The position numbers and the translations under genes are program-made. From positions 22,456,070-22,520,069 of the forward strand of contig NC_092671.1 of the NCBI RefSeq assembly GCF_964355755.1: a stretch of 64,000 nt of DNA, written 5' to 3'. Shown piece after piece: positions 27,801-63,801 of this stretch (within the stretch, counting starts at the first letter, position 1; the number at the start of each line of letters is the position of its first letter). The DNA is from Antedon mediterranea. Its lineage: Eukaryota > Animalia > Echinodermata. The notes under the pieces are model-generated. The model was not told the origin of the DNA, ran no database searches, and saw only the letters and a list, made by a program, of their open reading frames with translations.

Positions 27801-30340
27801 TTCACCTTCCTTAAGTGGCTTGAATTTGTTTATATCTTGAGCAATTGCATCTGCTATAAACCTTGGGTCACCATATACATTATCCAGATAGCTCCAGGCT
27901 CCTCGGTAATCTTCACCCAAGCCTCTAATCAATTCCAGTGGTTTTCCTTGCAGACTGGATCTCAGAATTGTTACTGCCTCTCTATTACTATATCTTGACT
28001 CTATAAATTGTCGGAAGTCGGCACGAAAGATGTAGTAGTCTCTTACATCCCCTGAAAACTTAGGTAGCTTTGGCCTTTCAATTTTAAATAAATCATTTTT
28101 TCTTGAGGATGGGTTGCTTGGCATCATTTGAGTATCGGCTGCATCATTTTCATCTAATTTTATAACAATTTGACCTTGAGCAACATTTTCATTATTTCCA
28201 TCGATCGCTTGACCTCTATCAGCTTCGCCATCAACTATTAATTGATTTGCCTCTAGGTTTTCTTCGGCTCCTTGAGCTCCAACTTGTTGTTCTGGTATTT
28301 CCTGATCTGGTATATCGTTTTGCTCATCTTGTTGATCAGCTTCTTGTTCTTCGTCAACATCATCACCAATAGGATGGTAGTCCTTATTTCGAATGGAAAG
28401 TTCTAGGAAATTATCTTGGCATTCTAACATCCACTTCTCTTGCCTTTCACAGTCTATCTTCGATGACATTCATCAGCTGATCGTGTTCCGTTTGTGAAGA
28501 TTCGTATGCTTCACTTACTTTTAAGAAGGCTTCGTTTATTTCATTTTTGGGCGATTCCTTTCTATCAGGGTTCCCATTGCGTTTGATAACCTTGTGAATT
28601 TAGCTTTGGCATTGCGTCTTTGTCTTTTTAGTTGTCGTTCGTTTTCCTCGGCCATCCCGAAGAAATTGAATTGTTGGTACGTCAGGGAAACTCAATACGT
28701 AAGAAAACAACAACTCCTGCTAGTTGTATATAAAACCTTTTATAAGCTTTGTGTATTTATTCAATCTGTAAGTAAACAGAAATAACCCATACAAAATGTA
28801 TTCAAAACAACAATAATAACAATTTTAACGTACGCCCTCAACTCTAGCGAATCATGCAACAAACAAACTATAAACGCCCTCAGCGTCAATCAAACAATTA
28901 ACTTACATAATTGTCGCTCCCATAATACATGCGACGCCGCATGTCTAATCGTCAACGCACAACAGCGTTAATCACAGTATGAGCCTACTCGCGCTGTAGC
29001 TTATGAAGTATGATCGAGGCTAGCCTACTAGCTCGGCTTAATAAAATCACACTTAAGACTCTACTAACTAACATAATTAGACTCACTTCTTTGGCAGGAT
29101 ATTTAGCTTCCCTTATTCATATACATTTACTGCATTTTATAGCTAAAATTACTATACACTAGAGGGTGAGCTCGCTTCGCTCGCTCCCCCTCTAGGAAGT
29201 GTAGACGATGGTTCTCGGAATGATAATGTTCTCCTTATACATTTTCTGTCGGTTACCATTATTGAAAATGCTTGACATTCGTAAAACTAAACTACTTTGT
29301 TTCACAGTGTTTTAGATGATTAATAACATTTTAAAGTATAGTTTTTATTGTTTGGTAGGGCCCTTTGGGGAGGCGGAGGTCATTTGAGGGAGGTGCTTAT
29401 TCGAGGGATATATGTTAAATTTTTTAGTTCTAATAATATGGTAACATTTATAATCAAATGAAATCCTCTCATAGATATGAAAAGTGGTAAAAAAGAATAA
29501 CAAATGCTTGGTAAATTGCAGATAACAGTGCGGTGAATTCTACTACAAATAGTATAATTGTGTTATTATAAATATGTGGATGGACGTTTATTAGATAGTT
29601 GGGTTGTGGGGGAGGGGGGTGTTATTATTCAAAGTGATGTTTTATTGGAGAGGCGTTTATTCAAATGAATACCATCCTCTTAATTATTAATACATTATTT
29701 AATTTAATCATCTTTTGAAACTAACTGCCGTGACAGAGTGGGCCCAAGAAAGAAGACATTACGGCTTGCAACATGGGCAGACATCTCGGTCCTAACGGGA
29801 CACAGGAAGATAGCCTACAGTTATTCCTGCAAGCTTACTCAATAAAACTCAGCTATCGGGATTTCACTCGAAAAATGTAATTTTATAATACTATTCCCCA
29901 CAATATATTCTGATTCTTTATGGCGTATATTTAATTTGATATTTATTAATTTGCAGTATAATTCCTATTATTTAACTACTGTACCTTCACACACGTGTGG
30001 TATGTTTTAAAATAAACAAAAAACTGAAATGGCTATGATTAATGGCCAATTTTTTTTTTCGTCTTCCAAAGGGACACTGTATTGATTGATGGAAAGTGCC
30101 TGTTTCCAGTCACCTTTAGGGTCAAATCTATTATTTTAACTGCTCCCTTGTGTATAAAAGAGAGAAAATATTTGAAACTAAGGTGAACTTATCTTAAACC
30201 CGGAAATTACTTTGACCGGGAAGAATTGAAATTGAGAGGAAAATCTAATGTTGAAATCATAAATGTTGTTAAAAAACTCTTTATAATATCTTCCTAAGAT
30301 ATAAATATGGAACAATAGCGTCGGCGTGCACACTAATGTT

Positions 30341-33300
30341 AAAAAAATATCCAATGATCAACATCAAGAAAAAAGAGGTCCAGGAGTATGGAAAATCAAC
30401 AATAGTATCCTAAACGATAAAGAATACGTCCGAAAAATAAAAGGAATAATTGAAAATACAAAAAAAAAATGAAAACAATCTGAGACCAGACGTGCTCTGG
30501 GAATTACTTAAAGTAAAAATAAAAGAATGTTCTGTAAAATTTTGTAAAAAAAAGAAAATGGAAAGAAATTTGGATAAAGTAAGCTTAATAAAAGAAGTCA
30601 ACGAGCTTACACAAAAGCTTAATCAAGTATACGATGAAAGAATCGAAAAACAATTAATTACAAAAAGGGATAACTTAGAGAGCATATATTTAGTTGAAGC
30701 AAAAGGTGCAATTGTCAGATCCAGAATTGATTGGTTTGAAAAAGGAGAAAAAAATAATAAATTCTTCTTAGGGTTAGAAAAGAATAATGCTAAAAGAAAA
30801 CACATTAAATCTGTTTTAAAAAGTAATGGAAAATATACATCTAACAATGATGAAATTCTGAAAGAAGAAGTTCTATTTTATAAAAACATATACTCTAATA
30901 AAGAAATACCTCTAAACGATATGAACAAATATCTAAAGCACACAAAATTAAAAACGTTGTTAGAGGAAGATGTAATAAAATGTGAAGGTCTTGTAACAGT
31001 CGAAGAATGCACAAAAACGATTTTTAAAATGAAAATAAATAAGAGTCCTGGTATTGATGGATTAAGTGTAGAATTTTATCGTACATTTTGGGAGAATGTA
31101 AAATATTTATTGTGTGATTCATTGAATTATAGCTTTGTTAAAGGCATGTTATCAACAACACAAAGAAGAGGTATTATTAATCTTTTATACAAAAATGGAC
31201 AGAGGGAAAACCTAAACAATTGGAGACCAATAACACTACTTAATGTGGATTATAAAATATTGGCTCACATTCTAGCTAATAGGTTACACAACGTTATAGG
31301 TTCCATTATAAATGAAGATCAAAAAGGTTATATTAAGAAAAGGTTTGGAGGAGAAAATGTAAGACTGGTAAACGACATACTAGACTACACAAAAGCAAAA
31401 AGTATTACAGGTGCTATTGTTTTTCTTGATTATGCGAAAGCTTTCGACTCAATAGACAGAATACTGCTGTTTAAGGTTTTAAAACTCTTTGGTTTTGGAA
31501 ATTCATTTATCAAATGGATAAAGGTTATGTATAAAGAAACAGAATGTGTCATAGTAAACAACGGATGGTTGTCAGAAAAGTTTAAAATGGAGTGTGGTGT
31601 GAGGCAAGGCTGCCCATTATCTGCTTTGCTATTTATTCTGGTATCAGAAATAATGGCAGTAAATATCAGAAATAATTCTAAATGTATAGGAATTACGTTA
31701 CCTAATAGCAATGACGATGATGATAATATCGTTAAAATTGCTCAATTAGCGGATGACACCGTAATTTTTTCACATGACGAAGGTAGTTTAAAATATTTCT
31801 TTAATGAGATTGAGTCTTTTTGTAGTGTTTCAGGGTTAACATTAAATAGAAAAAAGACAAATGGTATGTGGATTGGTGTAAACGAAAATAGTGTTTCAAA
31901 ACCATTAGATATTACATGGACTAGTGAACCTGTTAAATTTTTAGGAATCCATATAGGTTACAATAAGCATTTATGTGAAAAGAGAAACTGGGACAAAAAA
32001 ATTACCAACCTAGAAAACGTATTAAATTTATGGAAAAGAAGGAATCTTACCTTTTTTGGTAAAATAACTATTATTAAAACACTTGCATTGTCTAAGTTTA
32101 TATATAACGCAAGTATAATTGATGTTCCCAAAGATATAGTTAAACAAATAGAAAAACTATTATATACGTTCCTATGGGGAACCAGAAGGGAAAAGATAAA
32201 GAGAATAACCTTAATTAAAAATATTAAGGAAGGTGGTTTAAACATGCCAGATATTAGCTCTGTGGTTGAATCACTTAAACTGAATTGGGTCAAGCGACTG
32301 TTAAGTCCAGATCCAGGTAAATGGAAATGCATACCAAAATATTTCCTTCACCCAATTGAATATACAATAAAAAGTACTAAACTTAATGTACATGATCATG
32401 CTAACTTGAGAGATATGCCTACATTCTACAAGAACATGATTAATGCTGTTGTAAAATTTAATAATATTGTGTATTCAGAACCAACAACTTTAATAGAAAT
32501 AAAAAATCAACAACTATGGGAAAATAAGTTTATACTATCTAACAATAAATCATTGTACTTCAAATCATGGTTATATTCTGATTATAAAGTAATAGGTGAC
32601 ATATTTATAAATGATAGAGTATGTACCGCAGGTGAAATAATCTCAAATTTGTATAAAAAACATAATGGTTTAATCGAATATTTACAGCTTATGAATGCCA
32701 TACCAAATGGGTGGAAAGAAATTATTAGAAAAGACAATACAAATAATCAAGATGTAGGTAATAATGACTCATTGTTTCATAAGAACATTAAAGGATCTAT
32801 CTACTATAAATATTTTATAAACAAACGTTCCACTGAACCAGGTTCACAAAGAAAATGGGAATGTGAGCTAAATAACGTAGAAATAGATTGGAATAAAGTA
32901 TGGTATTATAAGGTATACAAGATGAAACATATAGTTAAAGTTGCTCAATTCAACTTTAAACTCTTACATCGAATATTACCGTGTAAAAAAAGATTAAAAT
33001 TATGGAATTTGGCAGAAAATAATTTATGTGACAATTGTATAAATCAGATAGAAAGTGAACAGCACATGCTGTTTGAATGCAATGCCATTCAATGGACATG
33101 GCACAAATTTAAAGGTGTGCTGGCTAATTGCTTTCCAGCTGAAGATAATATTACATGGTTTAAAATTGTTACAGGAACAAAAAACAATATTGTAAATGAA
33201 TTGATTTCTATGTTTTTATTCTGTATATACAAGGTACACATAATATCCAATGGTGGAAGAAAAGATAAAGATGATAAAAAAAAGATCTGGATTCTTTTCA

Positions 33301-34083
33301 CTGCTGAAGTTAAAAATCTAATAGAAAATGAACATATGTGTAACTTCATTAAGGCACAACGTAAATGGGGTGCAAAAAAGGAAACTCTGTTACAATTGAT
33401 AGCATGAATATAGTCTGTATGAAGTGTTTTTTTTTTCATGTTTTCTAAAATGCAATATGTTTTGTTTATTTCCCAATTACAAATTGTATACAGAAGTAGA
33501 AGTAGTATTATAATAAGATGTCATCGGGTATGAAGCGTCTCACATACACACAGAGCCAAAATGGCATCTTGGACTTGCACGGTGTATGGACTCTAACCTT
33601 ACGGTTTTCATTTTAATATTTCATTCCACTCTATCATCCTTATCTAGTTTTCAAACTTTTGCATTCCTCTTTTTTCATCTCATCCTTTTTGTCTTGGTGA
33701 AAAGGGAGGATATTTTATATTCCTCCTCTGAGTTTATAGCCTCTCTACCAGAACATGAACAAGATTTTATAAGTACGTTTTTAATGACAGTTCATAGACT
33801 TTTATTACCATCTTTTATCTTTATATTTTAATTAACATCTTTTTAAAATTGTAAATGAAAGCATGGTTATTATATTGAAATTAATCATCTTTTTATGTAA
33901 ATATGCCTACTTTTTAACTACTTGTTAACTTGTAACAATCTTAGTAATATACAACAGAAATAGAAATATTCATACAAATAATTAATTGCTACAATGTACC
34001 TTTATTTTATATATAATATATATACATATAAATCTGAGAATTATAATAAAAGTGGGAAGACCCCACACAAGACAAAAAAAAAA
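30341..34083 (+). mobile_element. 5'-truncated Tx1/L1-clade non-LTR retrotransposon
   Basis: Begins at the RGPGVWKINNSIL motif just after the endonuclease domain; AATAAA at 34045 and A10 at 34074-34083; left junction GTT|AAAAAAA; 3' boundary inferred. Confidence 0.8.
30450..33407 (+). CDS. Tx1/L1 ORF2 (RT and C-terminal zinc finger; endonuclease missing)
   Basis: KSPGIDG, WRPITLLNVDYKI, LDYAKAFD, GVRQGCPLS, QLADD, CDNC...H..FEC. Confidence 0.92.
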   Translation: MKIQKKNENNLRPDVLWELLKVKIKECSVKFCKKKKMERNLDKVSLIKEVNELTQKLNQVYDERIEKQLITKRDNLESIYLVEAKGAIVRSRIDWFEKGEKNNKFFLGLEKNNAKRKHIKSVLKSNGKYTSNNDEILKEEVLFYKNIYSNKEIPLNDMNKYLKHTKLKTLLEEDVIKCEGLVTVEECTKTIFKMKINKSPGIDGLSVEFYRTFWENVKYLLCDSLNYSFVKGMLSTTQRRGIINLLYKNGQRENLNNWRPITLLNVDYKILAHILANRLHNVIGSIINEDQKGYIKKRFGGENVRLVNDILDYTKAKSITGAIVFLDYAKAFDSIDRILLFKVLKLFGFGNSFIKWIKVMYKETECVIVNNGWLSEKFKMECGVRQGCPLSALLFILVSEIMAVNIRNNSKCIGITLPNSNDDDDNIVKIAQLADDTVIFSHDEGSLKYFFNEIESFCSVSGLTLNRKKTNGMWIGVNENSVSKPLDITWTSEPVKFLGIHIGYNKHLCEKRNWDKKITNLENVLNLWKRRNLTFFGKITIIKTLALSKFIYNASIIDVPKDIVKQIEKLLYTFLWGTRREKIKRITLIKNIKEGGLNMPDISSVVESLKLNWVKRLLSPDPGKWKCIPKYFLHPIEYTIKSTKLNVHDHANLRDMPTFYKNMINAVVKFNNIVYSEPTTLIEIKNQQLWENKFILSNNKSLYFKSWLYSDYKVIGDIFINDRVCTAGEIISNLYKKHNGLIEYLQLMNAIPNGWKEIIRKDNTNNQDVGNNDSLFHKNIKGSIYYKYFINKRSTEPGSQRKWECELNNVEIDWNKVWYYKVYKMKHIVKVAQFNFKLLHRILPCKKRLKLWNLAENNLCDNCINQIESEQHMLFECNAIQWTWHKFKGVLANCFPAEDNITWFKIVTGTKNNIVNELISMFLFCIYKVHIISNGGRKDKDDKKKIWILFTAEVKNLIENEHMCNFIKAQRKWGAKKETLLQLIA

Positions 34084-44900: not shown

Positions 44901-45941
44901 TTTTGCTCTTTATTTTTTCTTTTGGCTTTCGCTAAATGTATTTTGAAATCGTAAATTTTATGTTTAGCGCCCTCAATTTCAATGTAAAAAAATTGTATTA
45001 TCTTCGTTACGTGTTTAGAAGAGAATGTATGTCTCACTGTAGTTTGGTATGCCGTTCGTTGTTATATGTAAATGAGTTTGTGCAGGTGAAGTGGGAAAGA
45101 TGGTATTGTTAGTAATTCGCGTTCAACACGCCACACTGTTGAATTTTGATTTTGTTACTAGTTAAAATTTAGTAATGCACTAATAATTACTTCTACGGGA
45201 AAATATTTATCGACGGAGCAAAAAACATCTCCATTCTTAAACAATAAGTTGACGAGTCAAAAGTGTAGGCCTCTTTTGCGGGGAAATTTGATTTAGGCCT
45301 ATAGTTAGTATAGGTCCTAGGCCTATGTTGTACGCCGTGGTTAGGGAATCCGACACGATATTGCGCATGCCCAGAGCTCTGGGAAGTGAATTATAGCTTG
45401 CACTAATAGTGCCACACACCACACCACCGAGAGTCGGAGTGTTATAGGGATTTACTGTAGCCTAGATAGTCGAGTCGTTGCGCAAGCGAGAGATGGATGA
45501 AACTTGGCCTATGCCATACATGAATTAATAATTAAAATACGACTACGCCACGCGTTAAAATAATTATAATGATATTAATAAGAATCAGTATCTATCTAAG
45601 AATCGTAATGCTGTTTTTAACGTTGCGACCCCGAATTCCCGAACAGTTTTTTCACATCCACGCGGTGGCTGCCGTCAACAAATCAACTTGTGATTGCATG
45701 TTATGTACAGTATATTAAATGCGTTATGAAAAATGATAAAACTAGTCATGTAATTATATAATTCATAATGATATGAAGTTTATATATGAATGAAGCAACC
45801 ACTTTTTAATTACAAAATAAATAGGCCCACTGGTCACGTCTAACTGGTAGCCCTAGCCTAGATGGTATCGGATCATCTCGGTCGCGTTTCATTTCGGTCG
45901 CGCTTCCGGGAAATCGAACTTCCGGCGATTTCTATGGAACG

Positions 45942-46546
45942 CCGCTCAATGCAGTACTGTACACTGTAAGCTCTAATTAAAGATCGAAGTGTAGTCTCTA
46001 TTATTTTTTAGGTGTTTATTTAAAATGATTTTATATAATAATCATTATATTTAAATAAATATTGTAAAAACAGTATGTTATTAATATTAGTTTAACTTTT
46101 TTTTAAATGTTTTTATAAGCATTATATTTTGATATATTTTGTAAATATTCTATTAATTTGTTTCTGACGGGAAAAATAACATACAAACTCACTTTACACT
46201 TTTGTCAATGATCATTCAATCTTTTTATTTTTAAAACAAAAACACCGCTCGATGCAGTACTGTACACTGTAAGCTCTAATTAAAGATCGAAGTGTAGTCT
46301 CTATTATTTTTTAGGTGTTTATTTAAAAATGATTTTATATAATAATCATTATATTTAAATAAATATTGTAAAAACAGTATGTTATTAATATTAGTTTAAC
46401 TTTTTTTTAAATGTTTTTATAAGCATTATATTTTGATATATTTTGTAAATATTCTGTTAATTTGTTTCTGACGGGAAAAATAACATACAAACTCACTTTA
46501 CACTTTTGTCAATGATCATTCAATCTTTTTATTTTTAAAACAAAAA
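45942..46546. repeat. Tandem duplication of about 303 bp
   Basis: CCGCTC(A/G)ATGCAGTACTGTACACTG at about 45942 and 46245. Confidence 0.9.
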
Positions 46547-47169
46547 CATATACACAAATATTTACAACTGTTTTTCAATTCAATCCTTTTATTTTTAAAA
46601 CAAAAACGCATATACAAATGTTTACATTCATCATTCAAATTGAAACCTTTTTATTTACATATAGGCCTACAAACGTTATTTAATTTATCTATGTTTTTAA
46701 TATTTTATTTATTAACAATGTTTACCTCTATTTACATCTACAGACGTTATTTAATTTATCCATTTATTTAATCTTTTATTTATTAGCAATATTTACATCT
46801 ATCTCATCTACAAATCGCGAACATCATTTGATATAACGCGCGATCCAGCGAAAGGAGCGATCTCTCTGATCGTTGGCCTGCGCGATACTCGTCCCAGAGG
46901 CGTAAGAGCGTTCTAGTTGCACGTCGGTAAGCTTGTCGCTGAAGCCGGTCAACATCTTCGTGATGAACTAATTCCATTGTGATGTGAACATTCTGACTCT
47001 CTTCATGCAGCAGCCCGATTAAGAGGTAGAGTTGAAGTTTTGCTGAAATAACAAAAATAACGATATACTATAATTATCATGAGCAAGTTAACAACATAAT
47101 ACATAATATTATAATTGAAAAGTAATTTTCTTACCACGTCGTCCTTTTCGATTCAGTCTGTTGTGATAC

Positions 47170-48009
47170 GAGACCTCGAAAACAGAGACCAGAGACCCGA
47201 GACCCAGGGTCTCTGTTTTCGAGAAAATCTCGAAAACAGAGACCCCCACTAAAACGTCTCAATATTACGTAATATAGGGGTTCTCTCTTTTCGAGATTTT
47301 CTCGAAAACAGAGACCCCCGCTAAAACGTCTAAATAATACGTTATATAGGGGGTCTCTGTTTAACAGAGACCCCCACTAAAGCGTCTCAATATTACATTA
47401 TATAGGGGGTCTCTATTTCGAGAAAAACTCGAAAACAGAGACCCCCTATATAACGTATTATTTAGACGTTTTAGTGGGGGTGGAGTCCCCACTAAAACGT
47501 CTCAAGAATGACGTATCAGTAATAAACGGTAACTGATATGCCGATCAAAGAACATGCCGCAACGATAAGAAGAGATTGATGAATTCTTGAACGCGTGTAA
47601 AAAGACTGTCATTTTGGAATACAAGGTCGACGTCCTAGAAGTAAGATGTATAAATGCATGCTGTGCCTTTTAGAAGCTAAAAAGCGGGAGATTATTTAAA
47701 AAGCTGACACTAAGTTTCGTAACATTTATTTACAAGCATAAAAGATAATAACGTACAATGCAATAAATTGATAAATAAATAAACATAAATTCACGGTTTT
47801 TGCGATAAAGGTTGGGTGTTAATAATTTATGACCAAGCTTGGTGGGTATTTGCAACACTCTTAATAAACAGGGATTATATTAGGGGGTCTCGGGAAATCT
47901 CGAAAAAAGAGACCCCCAATATAATGAGACGTTTTAGTGGGGGTCTCTGTTTTCGAGATTTTCTTGAAAACAGAGACCCTGGGTCTCGGGTCTCTGTTTT
48001 CGAGACACC
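47170..48009. mobile_element. Foldback-like MITE built from CTCGAAAACAGAGACC repeats
   Basis: Long inverted ends, 11-bp TSD TGTTGTGATAC (47159-47169, 48010-48020). Confidence 0.85.
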
Positions 48010-50869
48010 TGTTGTGATACCCCTCAAGGTCGCTGTTGGTCCTCGTTGTCAACAGACAATATGGTTTCATTCTAATTCAATAGCACGAGACATAATGCGA
48101 CACGTCAATGCATTATGCTTTTAAAAAATGTTACATTACATAGATAATCGTAATAATATCTTTCAGTGCAATATAGTGTATAAAAAAGCTCAGTAAAGTC
48201 TCTCACTGATTTTAACTGGCACCAAACAAATATTCCCAATTTACTCATTCATAATAATTAACATATTGGAGTCGTCTTCGTAAGCTACTTGTTGTGTCCT
48301 TAAAATATAGATAAAAATCGTTACAAATGCAAACAGGTTTATAAATTCGAACTGCTACACGTACCGAGTGCTGAAAGAGAGTTAAATCGGACAGTTAAGT
48401 CTCAATCCTACAATAGCATCCATTTTCGTATGCTTTATGCATAATTGACGCGCCATACACCACGATCGATATTGTTGAAAATTGACCTTAATTGACACGC
48501 GACCGAAATGAAACGCGACCGAGATGATCGTAATTCGCCTAGATTAGTGGATCCCGCATTAGTAGGCATCTAGGCTAGTTCACCGTGTGGCGCAGCTATG
48601 AAATGATCCATCGCTGTATAGTCAAAGAATTGGTATAGTATAGAGTCGCCGATTACCTCGCTCTGGGCATGCGCAATAGCGTGTCGGATTCCCTAAGGCT
48701 GGGCAGTTGGGTTCCGGTGCCGGAATCCTAACCACGGCGTATGTCGTATTGTACTGTATAGAATACATTAATACTTAGCTAGTAGTAGGAGCTAGTTTTT
48801 TCTTGGAATGTGGGAGGACGTATTCGTATCAAATTGAGGCTTAGCTAGGCTACATCGTTAGTCTAGTATAAGCGATCCCCACTGGCCTACTAGCTAGACC
48901 CTATTATTAGCCGAGGCCTATAGCAAATTGTTTTTCAGTTGACAGCGTTCACTCTAAAAAACTAGGAAATGTAATTTTGGTTTGAGGTTTAATTTGTTTA
49001 GGCCCTGCAGGCTAGCCTACATGCTGGGGCCTATCATCCTAAGCCTAGACTATATAGGCTTACCAATATACATAAATACAATACAACATATCTGCATGTC
49101 CTATTAGTATTAAACACCAAACAAGACTATTCAGGGTTATATGTAACAACTAGCAAACGGATGTAAATAGGCCTATATGCTTTTTAATTAATTATAAATC
49201 AACTTCAGTTCCAAAAAGTCAATATTTATATAATTAAAAACAAGGAATATTTAAATAACGCTAACTGTTACGCCGTACACATCTTATTTGATCTATTCAA
49301 TAAGCAATATTTATTAATTCGAGATCTTTGCTGACTTGTCTGTATTCTTGGTTGATTCTTCAGACAGACATAAAGACCATACTTTACTGGCTATTTGGTC
49401 TCTGCCATTATCTTCCCCATTGGATGGAATTGCATCTTCGTTGGGATCTCTCCGTAGTTTATAATACAAGATCTTAGTTTAGCTAAAGCCTCACTAAAGG
49501 CATCAATTTGTGTCTGCTGTCCACCACTTCTATAGGTGTGTATAGCTTTATAGTCTGGCTTCTTAAACTATTTAGGATACATACATAGCAACTACAGACC
49601 TTCCTTAATATTAACAATAACAAAATTATATAACAAACTATAACAATTAATATTCTACCACTCTGTAGTTGTAATAATTATAGTTAGTTATAATTGGTTA
49701 TGTGACTCGTTTTTGTTTATTCAGATTAAATTGGCAGAAAGTCTTAAGGCCCCAAAATATGTTGTGAAAATGTGAACAAGGGTAACTTACAAAAAATACA
49801 GTAGCTACCTATTTCTTTTCAAGGGAGCATATGGCATTCCTTGTTAATCTCACTCTGTCCGATGTTCACAAGATGAGGTAATTTCAAGGTATTTTTCATT
49901 TGATATACATTTCTCTTTTGTTAAACAAGATTTTTAAATGTCGCATGAATTCAGTTTGTTTTGGTTTTTTTTCTCTACAATATTACAATATTCAGGAGAA
50001 TGTTCAGAATGTTGTCACAACTGGAAAAATCAATCCTTAATTGTATTATAGACAAAGTGTTATGTTGTTATTATATTGTAAATCATATTAGCTGACCATA
50101 GTCAATATCAAATTAGTTATTATGCTATGTTAAAATGCTGCTATGTAACTTGGGTGTAGGTGTAGTAATGTGTCATTGTGTCTTGACACAGGAAACATTT
50201 TAATTGTCAAACTATGAACTTTGAAATATTTTTGTTCTCTATTGATTGATGATATGGATATAAAATCAGAAAATGTGGAGCTGAGCAGAGTTGATGAATG
50301 AAAAGCTTCTCAATCAAATTGACAAACTGAATGAAGTGGTTGCTGTATGGAGTGTAATTGTAAGTTTTATGTTTAATATTTATATTTAATAGTGAAACTA
50401 ATAAATTCCACTCATGTTTTGATATACAGTGTACTCCTATTTCATATTTATTATAAAAATTTGATATTACTGTCAGCAAATTACCTAATTCTGGGATTTG
50501 TCTGTTATTATAAATGTTGACTATTGTTGTGTACATATTCACATACATGTGTTTTTCTGTTTATTTTTTCGTTGTACTGTAGATCTGCCAGATGTTTTAC
50601 GTAAACATGGCAATTTTTTAGCAGCGATGTGTCCACCAAACCATCGTCCATGTTTTCCAGATCAATTGCGACAATCTATGGCAAAAAGAATCCTAGTTAA
50701 TTCATCAATTCATTTTATGATTTATCTTCTGTTACGATAGGTGTTCAAAATTAATCATTTTTACGCCTTGTATATTTGTCCGGAATTACATAGTGCAGTA
50801 AAAAAAAATGAGACTGAACTTAAGGTTAGTTGCTCTATGTAATGCTGAACGAAATGATGACAGCATTCA

Positions 50870-51739: not shown

Positions 51740-51965
51740 TTCATTTCATTTCATTTATTTATTCACTTTACAAATATATAAATATAAAGTGGAGGAGCCT
51801 AAAAGAGAGCAAAGCTTGTGGTGAATAGGCTCCTCAAAACAAAACAAATAAAATATAAATAATATAACACAATTAGAAACTCCAAAAAAATAACAATTAA
51901 ACTAATATCTTTTCTCTAACACATAAGTTTAACATGTTTAAAACTAAAAAACAAGTAAAAAATAG
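51740..51965 (-). mobile_element. 3' tail of an L2/CR1-group LINE (continues at 63802-64000)
   Basis: (TTTCA)n tail and GAGGAGCCTA...TAGGCTCCTC stem-loop. Confidence 0.55.
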
Positions 51966-52071
51966 TGTTACCTGCACAGAAAAGTAGGCCCCTATTAAAT
52001 TTCAAGATCCAACGACCTGTGGAAAGTCACATGACCAGTTTGAGGTTGTTGCCTCTGGCATTGAGCTCATC

Positions 52072-52135
52072 ATTATTAAAGTGCTCGATCCAGAGTTAAC
52101 AACTTCTAACTGAGGTCTATGTAATTCTTTCGCAG
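52072..52135 (+). repeat. 64-bp intra-LTR direct repeat, copy R1 (R2 = 53526-53589)
   Basis: ATTATTAAAGTGCTCG...TTCTAAC...TTCTTTCGCAG identical in both copies; R1 is followed by GTAAGT. Confidence 0.97.
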
Positions 52136-53589
52136 GTAAGTTTATGATATTTTATATTCTTTTTAACTTATATATTATAATTATGACAATTTGTTATGTT
52201 ATGTTTCACAAGGATACTGAGTTATTTCTCCAGTACCCAGATTGAAATTATTAAGTAAGAAACTGAGAGGATAAACAGAGCGAATACTGTGATCAGATGA
52301 TTGTTGTTCATTTTAGAAAACAATCATTATATTTTAAGGTTAATGCTAGATGATTAAAGCCCCATTCCCTACGTTTTTTAGATCTATTTTAAGATCACAA
52401 ACTATATTTAATGTAAAAATAATACTATATGGTCCTATTGCGATAACTTTTTTCGTCTTTAAACGGTTAAAAATGTGAAAAATAAATCGATTCTAATAAT
52501 TATAGAGGCCCGCTATAAATCCCAAAATGCATTGCGCGCGGATTGATATTTTTGTTTTTCACCTGTAATTCGCCCACTTTTCGATCGATCGTGAAGCCAA
52601 AACAAATGGAAGACTCCTAACTTTTCAGCGAAAATACCGGGTTTTCCCCAATTTGTATCAACGGAGTCTGGCAAAAATAGAAAGACAATTAATGCAGCAA
52701 CTATACAACGTCAGGCTAGGTATATAGCTAGCGTACGATGTTCGTACGTTATCGATGTTTACTAGCTAGGCCTACAAAACTAAGCCTAGCTAGGCTAGGC
52801 CTAAGACCGTCCACGAGAGGTCGATCGCCGCGAGCTACTTAGGTAGTGCATTGTTTCTCACTTTTTATCATAATTTACCATAAAACGTACATTTAAGACA
52901 AGGAATGACATGGTTTAATGTTTTTAAAGTGATATATATGTATTATTTTCCAAAAAACGTCCAAAATTGCAGGGAAGGGGTCTTTAAGTTATGTATTTAG
53001 TACAGGATAGAGATAATAGCTAAATGTTTATACTTTCATTTTATGTCAATATAATGTAACGAATTATTAGGCTCAATAGCTATTAGAGGCCCTGTTAACA
53101 AAAAGAGTATATACAATGTATAAGGTTCATGACCTTGCCATTAATTGCTGTGGTATGTAAGGCTCTGCTAGTGGAACTGGCCGTTACTATGGTAACCAAG
53201 GTAGTGAGTCAATGTTGCACTGATAACTACACCCAGGGTACCAATTTAGAATTGGGTTTTATAACTATACTGGTTTCCTTATTTAGAAATCACATATGCT
53301 AGTGTAGAGTTGTATACACTGATAAGATGACCTTAAATTAATGTATCATGTTTTTGGTTTAATTCAGTCAGATAATTCAATCAATAATTAACGAGTTTAT
53401 GTAGAGATTATTTAGTTAGTTATTAAACATAATGTTGGGTAAAGGACCAATAGCTAGATTGATGTATTAGTTAAATTGTTTCATGTGTTAACACTCGTCA
53501 TTATAATTGTAATGTGTTAAGATTGATTATTAAAGTGCTCGATCCAGAGTTAACAACTTCTAACTGAGGTCTATGTAATTCTTTCGCAG
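52136..53589 (+). other. Predicted GT-AG intron inside the LTR (62949-63775 in the 3' LTR)
   Basis: CAG|GTAAGT donor; branch point TTCTAAC about 27 nt before TTCTTTCGCAG. Confidence 0.7.
52358..52983. mobile_element. Non-autonomous Kolobok-like element
   Basis: TTAA TSD, TIR AG(C/A)CCC(A/C)TTCCCT(A/G)C; absent from the 3' LTR (GATGATTAAGTTATG). Confidence 0.85.
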
Positions 53590-53613
53590 TCGAATATCCT
53601 GAACCGTAAAATC

Positions 53614-53630
53614 TGGCGATCCTGCCAGGA
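53614..53630 (+). promoter_or_regulatory. PBS complementary to tRNA-Arg(ACG)
   Basis: TGGCGATCCTGCCAGGA is the reverse complement of TCCTGGCAGGATCG-CCA, the invertebrate tRNA-Arg 3' end as I recall it. Confidence 0.8.
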
Positions 53631-53652
53631 CTATTCTGACAGAAGGATAAAC

Positions 53653-54816
53653 ATGGACCTCCAGACACTGGAGAGAGAAGTGAAGGATTGCTTGTATAAG
53701 CTAACCCTTCCTCAGCTAAAAGAGGTGGCTGGGGCAATCAAACAGGATGCAGGAATTGCAGACAAGCCAATCCGGGCAGTGTTAAAACATATTCTAAGGT
53801 ACCTCGAGAGCGAGGAGGTAGAGGCGCTTGAGGATGGAGGTGAGAGCGTCCTGTTGGTGGTAAGAACAAAAATGGAAGAGTTTAGAACATCCCCAACAAG
53901 CTCAACCGAAACCGAAACCACACCACCATTGCCGTCATCTATTGAGATGTTTAAAAGAGAATTAAAGATAAAGGGACAGATTGGGTCTACTGGACAAACT
54001 GACAAACTATCCTATTTAAGCGTGATGAGACAGATAGATGACAGTCTCACCCGTGGTTACAACCGTAGCGCCATTTTAAATGCTGTAACTATGGCTGTAA
54101 CAAGTGGAACTCCACTCCCAGGCTATCTAGAAAGTCAACCAGAAATGAGCCTAGCTCAACTCAGACGAGTCCTACGGTCCCATTTTAAGGAAGGAGATGC
54201 ATTGGACTCTTACCAACAACTATCTGCCGCTTACCAACAGCCAGGTGAATTGGCCCAAGAGTTCGTTGTCAGAGCTATGAATCTCCGTCAAAAGGTGAGG
54301 TTTTCATCCAATGAGGAAGGGGCACCACTGATGTATGATGATCAATTGTTGAGAAGCACGTTCCTCCAAACACTGCAGACAGGTCTTAGAAGAAACTTGC
54401 GCATTGAGATGAGAGAGCACCTTCAGGAACCCAATATCTCAGATGAAGACCTCCTTGAGAGACTAGTCAGAGTGGAAAACCTCGAAGATAAACGGAAACA
54501 GAAACAATGTACATCAAATACTGTAAAGGTTGCCAGTGCAACCGTTACCACATCTTCGCCCAGTGATGAAATCAAGATGCTGGTAGAAGGTTTGAAGACA
54601 CTACAGGCAAGTGTTTCAGCTTTACAGGGAGTTGTACAACACACAAACAAAGGTAGACGGAAGTCAAGAGGAAGAGGATGTAACAGTTGCAAGCAGGACG
54701 GTAAGGGAGATGATTGTAGGCATTGTTACAGGTGTGGAGGTGACAACCATTTCGCTAGGGCTTGCACCTCCAACCAGGGAAACGGACCCCGATCATCCCA
54801 ACGGGACTTGGAATGA
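53653..54816 (+). CDS. gag: Gag of Gypsy-B
   Basis: 387 aa; QQPGE..QEF..R motif; C-terminal CNSC...[17 protein letters not shown]. Confidence 0.92.
54777..54783 (+). promoter_or_regulatory. -1 frameshift slippery site G GGA AAC
   Basis: X XXY YYZ in the gag frame; the overlapping pol ORF is in the -1 frame. Confidence 0.85.
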
Positions 54817-57800
54817 TCGTAGAAAACCCCAACATGTCCCCTAACTCCAAGAAGCGTGAGATAGAGGTGGCCAAAGGTGATCACATGTATCAAGGCCAGT
54901 CTGGGATTGATCACTCGAAAGGAAGTCACAGTAACCAGTCGAAGTTTGATCCAGAAAAGAAGCACCAAATTAGCCACCTCACACCTGGGCAACACCTAAG
55001 ATTAGTCAACCTCATAGGTAGACGATGCACTGTCAAATGCAAATTAAACGGGAACATTGAAGAGGTTCTATGGGACACAGGTTCTCAAGTGTCGATTGTG
55101 TCTCAGACATGGTGGAAGACAAATTGCCAAGGTGAACCGCTGAGGAATTTAAGGGAGCTTTTGCAATCAGATCTCAAACTTACTGCTGCAAATGGTACTG
55201 ATATACCTTATATAGGATGGCTTTCTCTGAAACTTCAACTTTTATCTACTAATAATAATGATCCCTCAACATTTTCTACTTTAGTACCAGTCTTAGTAAC
55301 AGCTGATGAACTTCAACAACCAATCATTGGCTACAACGTAATCAAGGAAATTGTACAAATTGAGCAACCAGAACTTGTTAGGACAGTAAAAACATCATTT
55401 TCAAAATGTAATAACATCAAAGCTCAGAAGTTAATTTCAATGATGCGAAATTCCGATCCTAAAGATTTTTGTAATATATATTCAGGAAATTTGGTACATG
55501 AGGTCCCAGCGAAACAGACAACGTTCATACGAGTTAGAGCTATAACTGGTCCTATCCAGGAGGAGAAGATGATGGTGATAATTGAACCATTACTTGAACC
55601 ACATCTCCCCGATGGATTAGAAGTCAACGAAAATGTAGTAGAGCTAACATGCCGTCCCTGTAATGATATCAGAGTCTCAGTTACCAACAAAACGGACCAA
55701 AATTTGATAATTCCCAAGAAGACCTTATTGGGGAAGTTACAACTTGTGAGAGCTATCTATCGAGGTGTGTTCGAAGCTGGAAGCGATGAAGTTGTGCCAA
55801 CAGTAGGGGTACAGACGGCCAGAGTAGATGTGACGCCAGAAATCAATACTAGAAACTGGAAGTCTCAACTTGACTTGAGTCATCTAAGTTGCGATCAACA
55901 GCATATAGTAAATCAGATGCTTGACGAAGAATCCAATAGTTTCTCCCACGGTGAGCAAGACATGGGTTCGATACCAAGCCTACAAATGAAGATTAACTTA
56001 CTCGATAACATCCCAGTCCAGAAGACGTATCAGTCCATACCAAGACCTCTTTTTCAGGAAGTCAAAGACTACCTTACTGATTTAATTGATCGAGGATGGA
56101 TCGTCAAATCCGAATCTCCGTATGCATCACCCGTCGTGTGCGTTCGTAAGAAGGATGGAGGACTTCGGTTATGCATTGACTATCGGGAGTTAAACCGCAA
56201 GACGATCCCTGATTGCCAACCTATTCCCCGAATTCAAGACGTTCTCGACAGCCTTGGTGGAAACCGCTGGTTTAGTACCCTTGATCAAGGAAAGGCGTAC
56301 CATCAAGGATATATGACAACCGATAGCAGACCACTCACCGCTTTTGTAACACCTTGGGGTCTTCATGAATGGGTCCGAATACCTTTTGGACTCAAGAATG
56401 CCCCAGCTGCATACCAACGATGCATGGAAGACGCATTAGAAGGTCTAAACCACCAAATCTGTGAGGTCTACCTAGACGATATTATTGTTTATGGGAAGAC
56501 ATTCGAAGAACATCAAATCAACCTACAGAAAGTACTAAAACGTATACAAGAAAAAGGAATGAAATTGAAACCTGCCAAATGCAAACTGTTTCAATCTGAA
56601 GTGAAGTACTTGGGGAAAATCATTAGCCACGAAGGCTACCGGCCTGACCCTCGAGACACCGAAGCATTATACACCTTGAAGTCCAACATTCCTCGGACTG
56701 TAGGGGAAGTAAGAAAACTGCTAGGATTTACGGGATATTACCGTCGGTATCTTAGGGACTACTCCAAGCGAGCCAAACCATTATTTGTGCTGCTAACCCA
56801 AGCTGGTACTACTACAAAGAATAACCAATCAACCAATAAAAAGAACCAGAGAAAGAAACAGAAGAAACACAGTAATAGAAAGGACAACGGACAAGTTCCA
56901 TCTTCAACTCCAATAACATGGCTCCCAGAGTACCAACAAATAGTTGATTCATTCATTGACGAGTTAAGCCGAGCTCCGATTATGGCGTTTCCTGATTTTG
57001 AGAGACCGTTTGAGCTGCATACAGATGCCTCACAAGATGGACTTGGTGCGGTCTTATATCAACGCCAAGATGGAGTACTACGAGTCATAGGATACGGATC
57101 TCGTTCCCTTACACCAGCGGAAAAGAATTATCACCTTCACTCAGGCAAGCTGGAATTCCTAGCCCTGAAGTGGGCCATAACTAGTCACTTCAGAGATTAC
57201 CTATCCTTTGCAAAGTCATTTACCGTTTATACGGACAACAATCCTCTAACTTACATACTAACCACTGCCAAATTGAATGCCGTAGGTCATAGATGGGTTG
57301 CAGAACTTGCAGACTTTAATTTTACCATTAAATACAGGCCAGGTCGCAACAACGAAGATGCAGATGTACTATCAAGAATTCCGATGTCACCCAGTGAATT
57401 TGATCAATGTACTGAAGAAATTTCACCATTGGTAATGGATGCTGTTGTTCAAGGTATTGCAATACAACAAACAGCTGACTTTGCTTACATCAATCATATC
57501 GTTACTGATCATGTGCATATACAAGACCAACCATTTGGCATCACACCGAACCTATCTACATTATCAATTGCGGAAGTACGTTTGGCTCAAGAAGATGACC
57601 CTGCCCTTGCAAGATTCCGAGAATACAAAACCAAAAGTAGATGGCCCACTAGAGCCGAGCGCACCAATGAGATTCCTGAAACCAGGACCCTGATGCGGGA
57701 GTGGAGTAAAATCCATCTTGATAAAGATGGTATTCTTCGCCGGACGACGAAGACTAGGACACAACTATTGATCCCGAAAAGCCTTCGTCCGATGATACTC

Positions 57801-59121
57801 AAATCGCTACATAATGAGATGGGACATCTTGGCACTGAGAGGGTACTTATACTAATCCGAGAGAGGTTCTACTGGCCTCACATGGAAACTAACATCAACC
57901 ATTATATAAAACAAGAATGTAGTTGTGTGAAAGACAAGAAGCCATCCAGAATTACACGTGCACCTCTGGTAAACATCAAGACATCGGAACCATTTGAACT
58001 TGTCTCCATAGATTTCCTTCACCTTGACAAATGTAAAGGAGGATATGAGTACATCCTCGTAGTGATGGATCATTTTACAAGATTCGCTCAGGCTTATCCA
58101 ACCACCAACAAGTCGGGCAAGACAGTTGCTGACAGGATTTTCAACGACTTTGTTCTGAAGTTCGGTTATCCATGCAGACTACATCATGACCAGGGTCGTG
58201 AATTTGAAAACTCTCTATTTCGACGCCTTGAACAACTCAGTGAAGTCAGGGGTTCCCGAACTACACCATATCACCCTCAGGGGAATGGACAGGTCGAGAG
58301 GTTCAACCGAACCCTGTTGTCAATGCTCCGCACTTTAACTACAGAGCAGAAGCATGACTGGAAACAACATCTCAACAAGGTTGTTCATGCCTATAATGTT
58401 ACTCGACATGAAAGCACAGGTTATTCACCTCATTACTTATTGTATGGGCGGTCACCCCGACTGCCAATTGATCTTGCATTTGGATTATCCCCAGATGGTG
58501 ATGCCGCTGCAAGTGAACACCATGAATATGCCAAGAACTGGAAAATGAGGATGGAAGAGGCATACGCTTTAGCTAGATCGAATATGCAGAAATTAGCAGA
58601 AAGAAGTAAACACCGACATGACCAACAACGGCCAATCAGTACATCATTATAACCAGGTGATAGAGTCCTGATCAAGAACTGTGTTCCACCAGGTGGTCCT
58701 GGGAAACTTCAAAGCTTCTATGAGGACAGAATATACATAGTGGTCGCGCAAAAACAGGAGTTGCCAGTGTATGAAGTTCGCCCAGAAAACGGTAATGGTA
58801 GAGTACGGACTCTACATAGGAATTTACTTTGTCCCTGTGACGCTTTAGTACCAGATACTCAAAATGTTGCATCGAAAAAGAAGACAAAGATAACTCCAGA
58901 ACAACGATTACCTAGTGATTCGACGGAGAAGGTTACACCACAACCTGATACAGATTCAGTAGGTTCGGATGAAGAAGATGAAGTATATTTACAATATCCC
59001 CTATTAACCAATCCAGAACCACAATATGCATGTACCAGTAATGATTCATTGGTACAAGTTGAACCATATGCCACCCCACCAACAGCAGAGGATCCTACAG
59101 TGGATGAAAAGCACATGGAGG

Positions 59122-61915
59122 CAGCCGGTGTAAGATTGAATTGTGTCCAGCATTCAAAAGTGTCCGGGCGGACACTTTTCAGCATTGGATAGTGTCCAGT
59201 TGCATGTTTCAACTGGTTCGTGGGCGTTTTTCAACAATTTAATGCTGTCCGGCCCGTTTAATAATGTCTGACCCATGGATTGAAATGCGTCCACTATTAA
59301 ATACTGTATCATACGTTTTATGATAGGTGGTTGTTTTTATCACGCCTGCACTTGTCTTGTCTTCTTTAAATAACCAATAATACTTAATGATGCCAAACTA
59401 ATTTTTTTTTTCTAATTAAAGATCGCTTTGCCTAAACACCTCCAATTAGGAACCATTATATTATTTGGTATGTGAAAAGACAAGAAGAATAAATAATTGT
59501 TAAGTATGTGACAAAAACAAGTAAATGAAGTGGTCCTCTTCCAATTAAAAATCACTTTACCTAAAACACCTCTAATTAGCGACCATTATATTATTTAGTA
59601 TTAATAAAGCAAGAAGAATATATAGTTATTAATTATGTGACAAAAAACAAGTAATTGTACTGGTCCTCTTTCAATAAAGGACCACTTTACTTAAAACACC
59701 TCCAATTAGCGACCATTTTTATTAATTGGTATGAGTAAAGACAATAATAATTAATAGTTTTAATTATGTGACAAAATTAAGTAACTGTACTGACTGGTCC
59801 GCTTCCAATTAAAGATCACTTTACTTTAAGACACCTCTAATTAGTGACCATTTTTATTAATTGGTATGAGTAAAGGCAAGAATAATTAATAGTTTAATTA
59901 TGTGACAAAATTAAGTAATTGTACTGGTCCGCTTCCAATTAAAGGTCACTTTACTTTAAGACACCTAATTAGCGACCATTGTATTAATTGGTAGGAGTAA
60001 ATACAAGAAGAATACATAGTTTTAATTATGATAGTGACAAAATTAAGTAACTGTACTAGTCCTCTTCCAGTTATAGATCACTTTACACCTCCAATTAACG
60101 ACCATTTCATTAATTGGTATGAGTAAAGACAATAATAATTAATAGTTTTAATTATGTGACAAAATTAAGTAACTGTACTGGTCCGCTTCCAATTAAAGAT
60201 CACTTTACTTTAAGACACCTCTAATTAGTGACCATTTTTATTAATTGGTATGAGTAAAGGCAAGAATAATTAATAGTTTAATTATGTGACAAAATTAAGT
60301 AAATGTACTGGTCCTCTTCCAATTAAAGATCACTTCAATTTAAACACTTCCATTTAGCGACCGTTTTATTATTTTGTATGAGTACAGACAAGAGGAATAA
60401 ATAGTTTATAATCATGTGATAAAAAACAAGTAATTGTACTGGTCCTCTTCCAATTAAAGATCACTTTACTTTAAGACACTTCCAATTAGTGACCGTTTTA
60501 TTATTTTGTATGAGCACAGACAAGAGGAATAAATAGTTTATAATCATGTGATAAAAAAAAGTAATTGTACTGGTCCTCTTCCAATTAAAGATCACTTTAC
60601 TTTAAGACACTTCCAATTAGCGACGGTTTTATTATTTTGTATGAGTAAAGACAAGAAGTTTAAATAGTTTATAATCATGTGACAAAAAACAAGTAATTGT
60701 ACTGGTCCTCTTCCAATTAAAGATCACTTTACTGTAAGACAGACAGATGACAGTTAACAGACTAAAAGGTGAAATATCTCCCGAGAGCCGCTGTTTTGAG
60801 GTTGACCTGACAATTGTGGCCATTACCAATTGGGACATTACCCTTGCTGGACATCTGGTAACAATAAATACTGATTATGCTGCCACTTTAGTACACAAAA
60901 CGATAAATAAAAGAAAAATAATACAACTTGTAGCATTCCCTTAGGCCCTGTTCAAAACTGCTAGTGTAGAAAAATCAAATCCACCCATGTAATAAAACCT
61001 AGAACTAGCTAATGATGTAGAAACACCAACAGCTTATTTATTAAATAAAAATCAACATATACTAATGTATGTAACTCAACAGGTAATGTAGTAACGAAAA
61101 TTGCCTCACAGCTAATGTAGTTAATATCGCCAGCTAATAAAATATTATATATTTTACAAACCTAAATGTCTAAATCATGTGCAAATGTATTATTAATATT
61201 ATTAAATTAGTAACAGTATTATGAATATTACAAAATAATATTTTGAGAACTAAAAAATATTTTGAGGGAACAATAGTTAGGGAGAACAAAATAAGATTTC
61301 AAGAACTGAACAATATAAAAAACGAATTACTACTTCGAGACAAGGAATGATCGAGAGAACGAAATAATTTCGAGGGAAATTATTTTGTTCTCTCGCGAAT
61401 TAGTAATTCGAATTCCAATGAAATAATATTTCGAGAGAACAAAAATAGGTAGGCCCTATGCCTATATGATTTAGTGATATTCATTCCCTAGAAATAATAA
61501 TACAGTACCGGTAGGCTATATATTTTTTCAAGTTGTCGATTTACTTCAAATTGACAACAGGTTGTATATACTCAATCAAAAACAAACAATTTAATTGGAT
61601 TAGACTATATGTCTCCAGATATAATAATAGTAATATTTATTTCAATCGACTTGATATTTTGCGATTCAAGTTGGTATTCTAAGGAATTATAATTACCCTA
61701 ACGGGAGTTGGTGATCGTCCAGTGCCCTAGTTTTTACGGGGTTAATATGATGTCGATGTCAATATGATGTCGATGTCGATGGTCCTACTTTTTTATCGAT
61801 GAAAGCTGCCCGGGTGGTTGCAGCCATTTTCAACAGCTGGTATTACACTATTCAATGCTGAAAATTGTCCAGTGGACACTTTCAAACACCGGACACATTT
61901 AAATCTTACACCGGC
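59122..61915. mobile_element. Non-autonomous TIR element (hAT-like CAG start) carrying a satellite-like array
   Basis: TIR GCCGGTGTAAGATT(G/T)AA(T/A)TGTGTCC extending about 75 bp imperfectly; TSD not recoverable. Confidence 0.75.
59410..60735. repeat. Tandem array of about 10 units of about 125-135 bp
   Basis: CTGGTCCTCTTCCAATTAAAGATCACTTTAC recurs at about 59531, 59660, 59795, 59924, 60056, 60178, 60308, 60439, 60570 and 60701. Confidence 0.93.
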
Positions 61916-62778
61916 GACACACAACATGCTGATATGGATGAACCAGTTAGTTCAAATGAACAGGTACCAGCAGCAGAGATTGGACGACCAGTTCGTCATC
62001 GCCAACCTCCTACTTTGTTTGGCTACCACAACTTGGGCACACCAGCACCAGGCTGTATGCAGATAAATGGTGCTAACACCAGACCACTACAAAATCCATA
62101 TTGGGACAACCACTACCGGAATGGACCTATCCAATTTTATCCACAACCAACTCAATATGCAACTCAACAACCAATCTGTACAGAATTTCATCCTACCAGA
62201 CAATGGATACCACCTACTGTACCAGGCCAATATCCAATGTTTCACAGAAAGTGTTAGGACCTGATGAAATTGAACATTGATTGTAAAAGAAAGTGGATTT
62301 ATTTGTTACCCAATTGGTTATTGACAGAACTTACAAGTGTTTGTGATTGAGTACTACAAAGAGATGGTTGATAATGTACCATGAGCAACAGGTAACTATT
62401 CAGGCTGTGCATAAACATTGAGATGGTATCTACGGGGAATCACAAACTGGAACCAACCTGGTAATGACAGTGCATTGTGTACAGTTGTCGACAGATAACA
62501 TGGACCAGCTAGTCTTCTATGGATGTATCGTTATTGGACGACGCATGGGTATGTCGCATGCATGCAACCCTTGCACATCCCTCTTAGACACCATGGAATG
62601 AGGTAGTATCTGGAGTTTAGCTATGGCTAACTGTAAGAAGCTGGATCCTACATTCTAATATTGTGACACAATGAACTGTAGCAATTATCACTTAGATAAA
62701 CTGTAAATAACTGAAATTTAATAAATATGTGTATTCGTTTGTGGATGTCGGGGACGACATCACATTTGTGGGGGAGTA

Positions 62779-63797
62779 TGTTACCTGCACAGAAAAGTAG
62801 GTCCCTATTAAATTTCGAGATCCAACGACCTGTGGAAAGTCACATGACCAGTTTGAGGTTGTTGCCTCTGGCATTGAGCTCATCATTATTAAAGTGCTCG
62901 ATCCAGAGTTAACAACTTCTAACTGAGGTCTATGTAATTCTTTCACAGGTAAGTTTATGATATTTTATATTCTTTTTAACTTATATATATTATAATTATG
63001 ACAATTTGTTATGTTATGTTTCACAAGGATACTGAGTTATTTCTCCAGTACCCAGATTGAAATTATTAAGTAAGAAACTGAGAGGATAAACAGAGCGAAT
63101 ACTGTGATCAGATGATTGTTGTTCATTTTAGAAAACAATCATTATATTTTAAGGTTAATGCTAGATGATTAAGTTATGTATTTAGTACAGGATAGAGATA
63201 ATAGCTAAATGTTTATACTTTCATTTTATGTCAATATAATGTAACGAATTATTAGGCTCAATAGCTATTAGAGGCCCTGTTAACAAAAAGAGTATATACA
63301 ATGTATAAGGTTCATGACCTTGCCATTAATTGCTGTGGTATGTAAGGCTCTGCTAGTGGAACTGGCCGTTACTATGGTAACCAAGGTAGTGAGTCAATAG
63401 TTGCACTGATAACTACACCCATGGTACCAATTTAGAATTGGGTTTTATAACTATACTGGTTTCCTTATTTAGAAATCACATATGCTAGTGTAGAGTTGTA
63501 TACACTGATAAGATGACCTTAAATTAATGTATCATGTTTTTGGTTTAATTCAGTCAGATAATTCAATCAATAATTAACGAGTTTATGTAGAGATTATTTA
63601 GTTAGTTATTAAACATAATGTTGGGTAAAGGACCAATAGCTAGATTGATGTATTAGTTAAATTGTTTCATGTGTTAACACTCGTCATTATAATTGTAATG
63701 TGTTAAGATTGATTATTAAAGTGCTCGATCCAGAGTTAACAACTTCTAACTGAGGTCTATGTAATTCTTTCGCAGTCGAATATCCTGAACCGTAAAA
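62779..63797 (+). repeat. 3' LTR of Gypsy-B (R1 62885-62948, R2 63712-63775)
   Basis: TGTTACC...CCGTAAAA followed by ATAG. Confidence 0.95.
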
Positions 63798-63801
63798 ATA
63801 G

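Follow-up and report, generated by a model that had tools for sequence, protein, structure and literature searches.

Reverse transcription of spliced RNA erases introns, so in the accepted view long terminal repeat (LTR) elements and retroviruses package RNA that has escaped splicing, for which special export routes are needed. The present analysis concerns a Ty3/Gypsy element with direct LTRs, a primer-binding site (PBS), a polypurine tract (PPT) and a 4-nt target duplication, located at 51966-63797 of a 64,000-nt stretch of Antedon mediterranea DNA (NC_092671.1, 22,456,070-22,520,069, forward strand; hereafter the window), whose LTRs each contain two copies of a unit resembling the terminal repeat region (R) around an intron-shaped segment, between the unique 3' (U3) and unique 5' (U5) regions.

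Several described systems combine splicing signals with terminal repeats. Retroviral genomic RNA must stay unspliced, according to a passage of one review (PMC12789967). The foamy virus LTR, in the part of the report at hand, holds a splice donor at both ends, with U1 binding suppressing a nearby poly(A) site and a U3-dependent RNA fold switching the 3' LTR (PMC3694450). Penelope-like elements are described, in excerpts, as carrying a cap-proximal intron of 75 nt in the terminal repeat, 46 nt past the start, which undergoes splicing, is required for expression and persists through transposition, the retention being ascribed to unspliced or antisense templates (PMC2377424, PMC3846280). The excerpted account of the Ty1/Copia element EVD reports a spliceosomal intron with U1-dependent suppression of premature poly(A) (PMC5580714), and that of a human T-cell leukaemia virus type 1 (HTLV-1) LTR intron in a hybrid vector promoter reports donor and acceptor within the LTR and observed splicing (bioRxiv 10.1101/2023.01.28.526022). 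In the literature covered, which excluded Repbase and most subscription journals, where LTR entries may mention the repeat, no account was found of LTRs whose first exon is present twice, on either side of an intron.

Duplicated R units and a proposed route of intron retention

The organisation of the two LTRs is as follows.

51966..53611, +: 5' LTR, TG...AA, 1646 nt including a private 630-nt insertion
51966..52071, +: U3-like segment, 106 nt, putative promoter region
52072..52135, +: R1, 64-nt unit, putative first exon
52136..53589, +: intron-shaped segment, GTAAGT...TTCTTTCGCAG, last 64 nt being R2, splicing presumed
52354..52983, strand not assigned: 630-nt high-copy insertion at a TTAA site, 5' LTR only
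53521..53525, +: variable junction directly 5' of R2, putative minus-strand transfer scar
53526..53589, +: R2, copy identical to R1, 3' end a candidate splice acceptor
53590..53611, +: U5, 22 nt
53614..53631, +: PBS, first 17 letters the same in two relatives (L001, L048)
62779..63797, +: 3' LTR, 1019 nt, with R1' at 62885-62948, intron-shaped segment at 62949-63775 and R2' at 63712-63775

The 64-nt unit occurs four times (52072-52135, 53526-53589, 62885-62948 and 63712-63775; self-BLAST E 5e-27), exactly where a first-pass annotation of this DNA had placed two copies per LTR; three copies are identical and the third differs by one G>A at 62945. As that annotation had also stated, R1/R2 identity begins at the A of an initiator-like TCATT (52072) and runs to the AG where GTAAGT follows R1. 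Beyond R2 the LTR continues for 22 nt, its end being separated from the PBS by 2 spacer bases. R1 holds an ATTAAA (52075-52080, R +4) and a branch-like CTAAC (52106-52110, 30 nt ahead of the unit end), both claimed earlier and both found, together with a pyrimidine tract, CAG and an ATG-TAA start-stop at 52119. A GT-AG intron is marked by a donor, then a branch point and a pyrimidine tract, and finally a YAG; the window LTR shows these signals in this order, with the donor GTAAGT, CTAAC at -30 and TTCTTTCGCAG. The intron-shaped segment of the family is about 827 nt long (3' LTR), reaching 1454 nt only when the 630-nt insertion is counted, and ahead of R2 in the 3' LTR it has 29% GC and 26 ATGs. 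The insertion, skipped by contigs of three other sequencing runs (X8, X1, X3), has ends that we take to resemble Kolobok DNA transposons. No TATA box was seen near -30 in the U3-like segment of the 5' LTR.

Based on these signals and on the comparisons below, the LTR is read as U3, R1, an intron-shaped segment ending in R2, and U5, the intron being likely kept through landing of spliced-leader cDNA on the R2 of an unspliced 3' LTR, with a probability of roughly 0.78. Transcription would start at R1 and the cap-proximal intron would be spliced, yielding an R1-U5-PBS leader. The 3' LTR would keep its intron and the RNA would be cleaved inside R2, with U1 at the donor silencing the R1 poly(A) signal in those cases where R1 has one. 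Minus strong-stop cDNA, consisting of U5 and R1, would then transfer to the R2 stub before copying the intron, R1 and U3; R1 would overwrite R2 in every cycle, and transfer errors would fall at the R2 5' edge, away from the promoter. Transfer to R1 instead, or splicing of the 3' LTR, would yield intronless LTRs of the kind seen in the clade described below. Cap-dependent recognition of the first intron would be the default explanation for the escape of the 3' intron. Masking of the donor by U3 was considered as a general reason for this escape and rejected, the folding prediction favouring it in 1/6 families.

The likely gain would be a spliced leader rid of 7-25 upstream ATGs. Selection may keep the intron on account of this removal, because precise loss would delete the sole near-R hexamer in three families, and because the Penelope cap-proximal intron is, in the excerpted source, needed for expression (PMC2377424).

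Joining donor to acceptor produces R1-U5, which is letter-identical to genomic R2-U5, so that plain RNA-seq junction reads and cap analysis of gene expression (CAGE) tags map silently to R2 and are uninformative; the first-pass annotation had proposed both as checks, and neither discriminates.

The layout in related families

Relatives were collected by pol alignment, which fetched 79 metagenome loci and 4 loci of one contaminated genome bin (83 in total), with none in viral contigs and none in a first scan of genome contigs, and duplicates were sought by blind self-comparison plus inspection of the 83 loci. Five further families (L009, L059, L020, L011/L012 and L083) have the layout, with units of 68, 61, 72, 45 and about 84 nt, respectively, against 64 nt in the window. 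The two unit copies are exact within each family, except for one A-run indel in L083, and the segment between them measures 260-691 nt where both ends share one contig strand; U5 ranges from 10 to 56 nt across the duplicate-bearing families. Reverse transcriptase (RT)-RNase H identity among the six families is 59-82%, and R units of 13/15 family pairs show no more similarity than the top one among 100 shuffles, with L009 and L059 units matching at 63% between families and 100% within each. The co-variation of R1 and R2 that the first-pass annotation had asked about is thus seen across six families as between-family divergence and within-family match. A 71-nt repeat in L054 touches a contig end and was set aside, and the units of L080 and L081 have no second copy in their bin (1 match each). 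That bin, which holds L080-L083 and is titled Sedimenticola (G001), is full of animal LTR-retrotransposon contigs, with 276 pol matches, and represents host repeats binned as a bacterial genome.

The unit boundaries coincide with functional-type motifs. R1 ends at an AG/GT boundary in 6/6 families, the donors being GTAAGT, GTCAGT, GTCTGT, GTATGT, GTAATC and GTAATA; AGGT has a frequency of 0.002-0.007 per position, giving a chance product of about 1e-12 over 5 lineages. As a control, 1/30 interior repeats in 60 other LTR-element contigs ends at AG/GT, and that one lies outside any LTR, many of these contigs being without whole LTRs so that the control covers repeats and not other clades. R1 starts at most 1 nt from a CA[GT]T core in 5/6 families (4/5 lineages, P 9e-5). 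A branch-like motif is present in 5/6 duplicate-bearing families, and the pyrimidine-rich acceptor score is at least 0.85 in 6/6 families vs 0/13 outside the clade. Identity spanning initiator to donor is as predicted by copying of a first exon.

An alternative source of R1/R2 identity is an unspliced genomic RNA: in the course of strong-stop synthesis RT would switch templates between the direct repeats, from R2 to R1, with transfer to R2 afterwards. RT frequently causes direct-repeat deletions in retroviruses, and such a switch accounts for the identity as well as for a scar at the R2 edge. It gives no reason for a repeat ending at AG/GT in all six families or for the pyrimidine-rich acceptors, and with random switch points the identity should fade toward the R 3' end, where no such fading is seen; this explanation is accordingly judged improbable.

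A recent local duplication or assembly artefact without function would suit the youth of the element, whose 5' and 3' LTRs are separated by 4 substitutions, 2 small indels and the 630-nt insertion in the 5' LTR alone, and it would suit the single R found in half of those clade families whose LTR is visible in full. It is nevertheless hardly credible against six families with different unit sequences and common boundaries at initiator and AG/GT. Moreover, the 45-nt units of L011/L012 are shorter than the 55-nt end overlaps of those contigs and were assembled with distinct flanks, and contigs of other runs branch exactly at the 64-nt unit.

Poly(A)-type hexamers lie at most 18 nt from the R2 start in 6/6 families. 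In L009, L059 and L011 the hexamer is upstream of R2 with none at R1, and in L009 (7297-7305) and L059 (2915-2923) R2 opens with the final A of AATAAA, so that the poly(A) signal straddles the presumed transfer junction. A G before R2 that could derive from the cap is present in 4/6 families and absent in the X3 and X9 forms of the window family, and was dismissed as only a hint.

In a quick IQ-TREE phylogeny of 70 loci, the window and an outgroup (13/83 loci with too little RT cover being excluded), all 7 duplicate-bearing rows fall into one 29-row clade with a Shimodaira-Hasegawa-like approximate likelihood ratio (SH-aLRT) support of 97. Clade LTRs without a visible duplicate have higher acceptor-like end scores, by an ad hoc measure, than those outside (13 vs 13, Mann-Whitney p 0.014), and with a threshold set after viewing, 4/13 clade vs 0/13 outside rows exceed it (Fisher p 0.096); 3/13 outside rows (L041, L055, L079) are absent from the tree, their position being judged from similarity of LTR and PBS. 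It is rather likely that this clade of animal Gypsy elements as a whole packages spliced genomic RNA and regenerates the LTR intron each cycle via split-R strand transfer. As part of that same reading, and with the same likelihood, precise intron loss would be self-eliminating in families whose sole poly(A) signal lies in the intron end. We favour ancestral duplication followed by repeated loss; alternatively, repeated gain may have occurred. PBS sequences clearly differ among closely related elements (L001-L083), which suggests frequent primer switching in the clade.

Variation in other sequencing runs and weighing of the model

The window family was compared with other sequencing runs (X1, X3, X5 and X8-X11) as assembled contigs, which drop rare variants. 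In X8 and X5 the LTR is broken up into separate contigs for U3, the intron, R (64 nt) and the parts downstream, with branching 30 nt inside R, which indicates that the duplicated form is the form assembled there; the question of its prevalence, raised in the first-pass annotation, was answered in this sense for the runs covering the LTR. At the R2 5' edge, every run in which a contig resolves it (5/5, four studies) departs from the window sequence no more than 5 nt away, with 4 nt left out (X8, X1), different 1-nt gaps (X5, X3) or G>C (X9), giving five forms of 53521..53525 among the window and five runs; X10 spans the edge with unresolved gaps and X11 is without cover there. The rest of the 760-nt segment has five indel sites among those listed, and the U3/R1 contigs of X8, X5 and X11 are free of gaps, with any listed change at -8 or farther out. 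In Ty1, minus-strand transfer junctions are where errors accumulate, and together with this variation the transfer junction appears to be at R2.

The same variable edge bears on another explanation, namely a conventional LTR with its start at R2. R1 would then provide a second promoter farther upstream and the first exon of a spliced mRNA used for translation only, the packaged RNA would begin at R2, and identity would arise from occasional copying of R1-started RNA, which would look the same in sequence. R1-started and R2-started RNAs would indeed be letter-identical, a scar at R2 has the look of any normal U3/R border, and in L020 and L083 the initiator core lies within the repeat, hence also at R2. 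Against this, the core is found only at R1 in the window family, L009 and L059, the bases ahead of R2 vary freely between runs, and perfect identity requires frequent R1-to-R2 copying, which is the split-R model itself. A start at R2 for the packaged RNA is therefore considered unlikely.

Further evidence for linked copies comes from X8, whose R, R-U5 and intron contigs have one unlisted difference each, which elimination assigns to R 35-64 on the donor and U5 sides. A joint change of R1 and R2 would produce this, as would a U5-linked form that is in fact spliced R1; both accord with the split-R model, and independent copies do not. X8 and X10 look like RNA, containing a GT..AG joint at 50359-50583 that is absent in X1 and X3, and having patchy cover. 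The corresponding host-type GT..AG intron (window 50360-50582) is skipped in their contigs. An X10 contig also joins 50583-50694 before 49723-49850, against genomic order, reflecting a host gene paralogue, a repeat or a rearrangement. The higher depth of the intron than of U3 in X8 contigs and the lack of X10 cover over the initial part of the intron were not used as evidence.

Several observations weigh against splice-and-rebuild replication. R1 within the 3' end offers a longer homology than cleaved R2, for which reason intron loss should be frequent. A single R is present in 6/12 clade families with a whole LTR (L018, L022, L027/L028, L033, L053, L066), contradicting the expectation in the first-pass annotation that intronless LTRs would be absent or rare; these families are interleaved with duplicate-bearing ones in the tree, and scaffold L083 also carries an intronless U3-R-U5-PBS copy past an N gap. 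Some single-R LTRs may be assembler collapses, and that of L066, running into flank, looks real. Folding showed no general U3-dependent masking of the 3' donor, accessibility being below all 12 shuffles in 1/6 families, and L011 lacks a CA[GT]T core at its start. Counts of differences, with the letter itself not displayed, are the source of the X8 change. One X10 contig of depth 8, probably RNA, extends in its alignment from 53517 across R2 and on into gag. Either an unspliced transcript of the 5' LTR or a merge in the assembly graph could account for it, and it is compatible with the unspliced RNA of the template-switch explanation. Finally, the assembled contigs of all runs contained no read with a transcription start, splice or 3' end. 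With these points taken into account, the interpretation in the first-pass annotation is supported, indirectly, at the level of sequence comparison.

The element, its surroundings and known systems

The remaining features of the element are listed below.

51962..51965, +: target-site duplication ATAG, second copy at 63798-63801
53653..54816, +: gag-like open reading frame (ORF), its start ATG being the first ATG past the acceptor
54759..58652, +: pol ORF with RT, RNase H and integrase
59124..61915, strand not assigned: insertion with inverted ends inside the element, foreign to the family
62768..62778, +: PPT

By its proteins, the window element is an ordinary Gypsy element. Pfam matches in pol comprise RVT_1 (462-620), RT_RNaseH (746-853), Integrase_H2C2 (1005-1059) and rve (1077-1173), an order of RT, RNase H and integrase as in Ty3/Gypsy. 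An aspartic protease ahead of RT has no Pfam match at E 0.001, with a DTG motif at the expected place, and the gag-like ORF has no Pfam match. Among named database proteins, the closest come from fish and are labelled 'Gypsy retrotransposon integrase-like', with 55-57% identity. Many fish-type homologues have a zf-MYND (PF01753) match in the polyprotein, which was not seen in the window element. In Gmr1-type Gypsy elements the integrase lies upstream of RT; this assignment was ruled out, as the window integrase is downstream of RT. The PBS is presumably of the tRNA-Arg type.

The window copy is damaged, with an in-frame stop breaking pol in the C-terminal part of the integrase, the same frame running on to 59192, and a 2.8-kb insertion downstream. 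This insertion (59124-61915) has inverted ends of about 70 nt and an internal array of about 130-nt units, and an internal X8 contig of 6435 nt has the length expected of an element without it. Empty-site contigs are present as loose ends in X8, X5 and X9. Both window LTRs and the X9 contigs end TG...AA, not TG...CA, and the close relative L001 ends CA; the window family is, judged by these ends, a variant at the last LTR base.

Other elements surround this copy. A second Gypsy family at 42-8492 has identical 597-nt LTRs, an in-frame pol stop at 3849-3851 and a shorter second copy at 19830-23489, and no internal R duplicate was found in its LTR. A BEL/Pao element in several frames (Peptidase_A17, DUF1759) and a long interspersed nuclear element (LINE)-type RT ORF are present at 23796-28469 (-) and 30450-33407 (+). 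Nested inverted repeats at 45341-48696 (45341/48696, 45871/48529, 47185/48001) around palindromic arrays are probably nested DNA transposons.

If the proposed replication is true, genomic RNA gains the benefits of splicing without intron loss, and the transcription start is kept apart from an error-prone transfer junction, leaving a built-in record of strand-transfer errors and concerted evolution. R, U3 and start sites of such LTRs would then be misannotated, since spliced reads map silently to R2. Were the clade-wide reading to hold, it would also amount to a second, so far undescribed LTR architecture, overturning the rule against retroelements keeping introns spliced from their own template.

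Compared with known systems, the element resembles Ty3/Gypsy (Metaviridae-type) elements of fish and marine invertebrates in gag, RT-RNase H-integrase pol, PBS, PPT and 4-nt target duplication, R-mediated first transfer being assumed, and differs from them in two R units per LTR around an intron-shaped segment and in a packaged RNA that is presumably spliced. With foamy virus it shares a splice donor within both LTRs, a candidate donor here; the available part of PMC3694450 mentions no acceptor or second R copy, and a U3 fold is supported in 1/6 families here. The EVD intron, unlike that of the window element, lies inside the element and owes its survival to a full-length RNA that remains unspliced, as the excerpted report states (PMC5580714), while the HTLV-1 case is a vector promoter for which the consulted text describes no duplicated R or regeneration. 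Penelope-like elements, as excerpted, have in common with the window element a putative cap-proximal intron in the terminal repeat, from which they are set apart by a GIY-YIG endonuclease and pseudo-LTRs, the window element having an rve integrase, PBS and PPT; their intron retention, in the same excerpts, does not proceed via a duplicated exon rewritten at strand transfer, the route proposed here.
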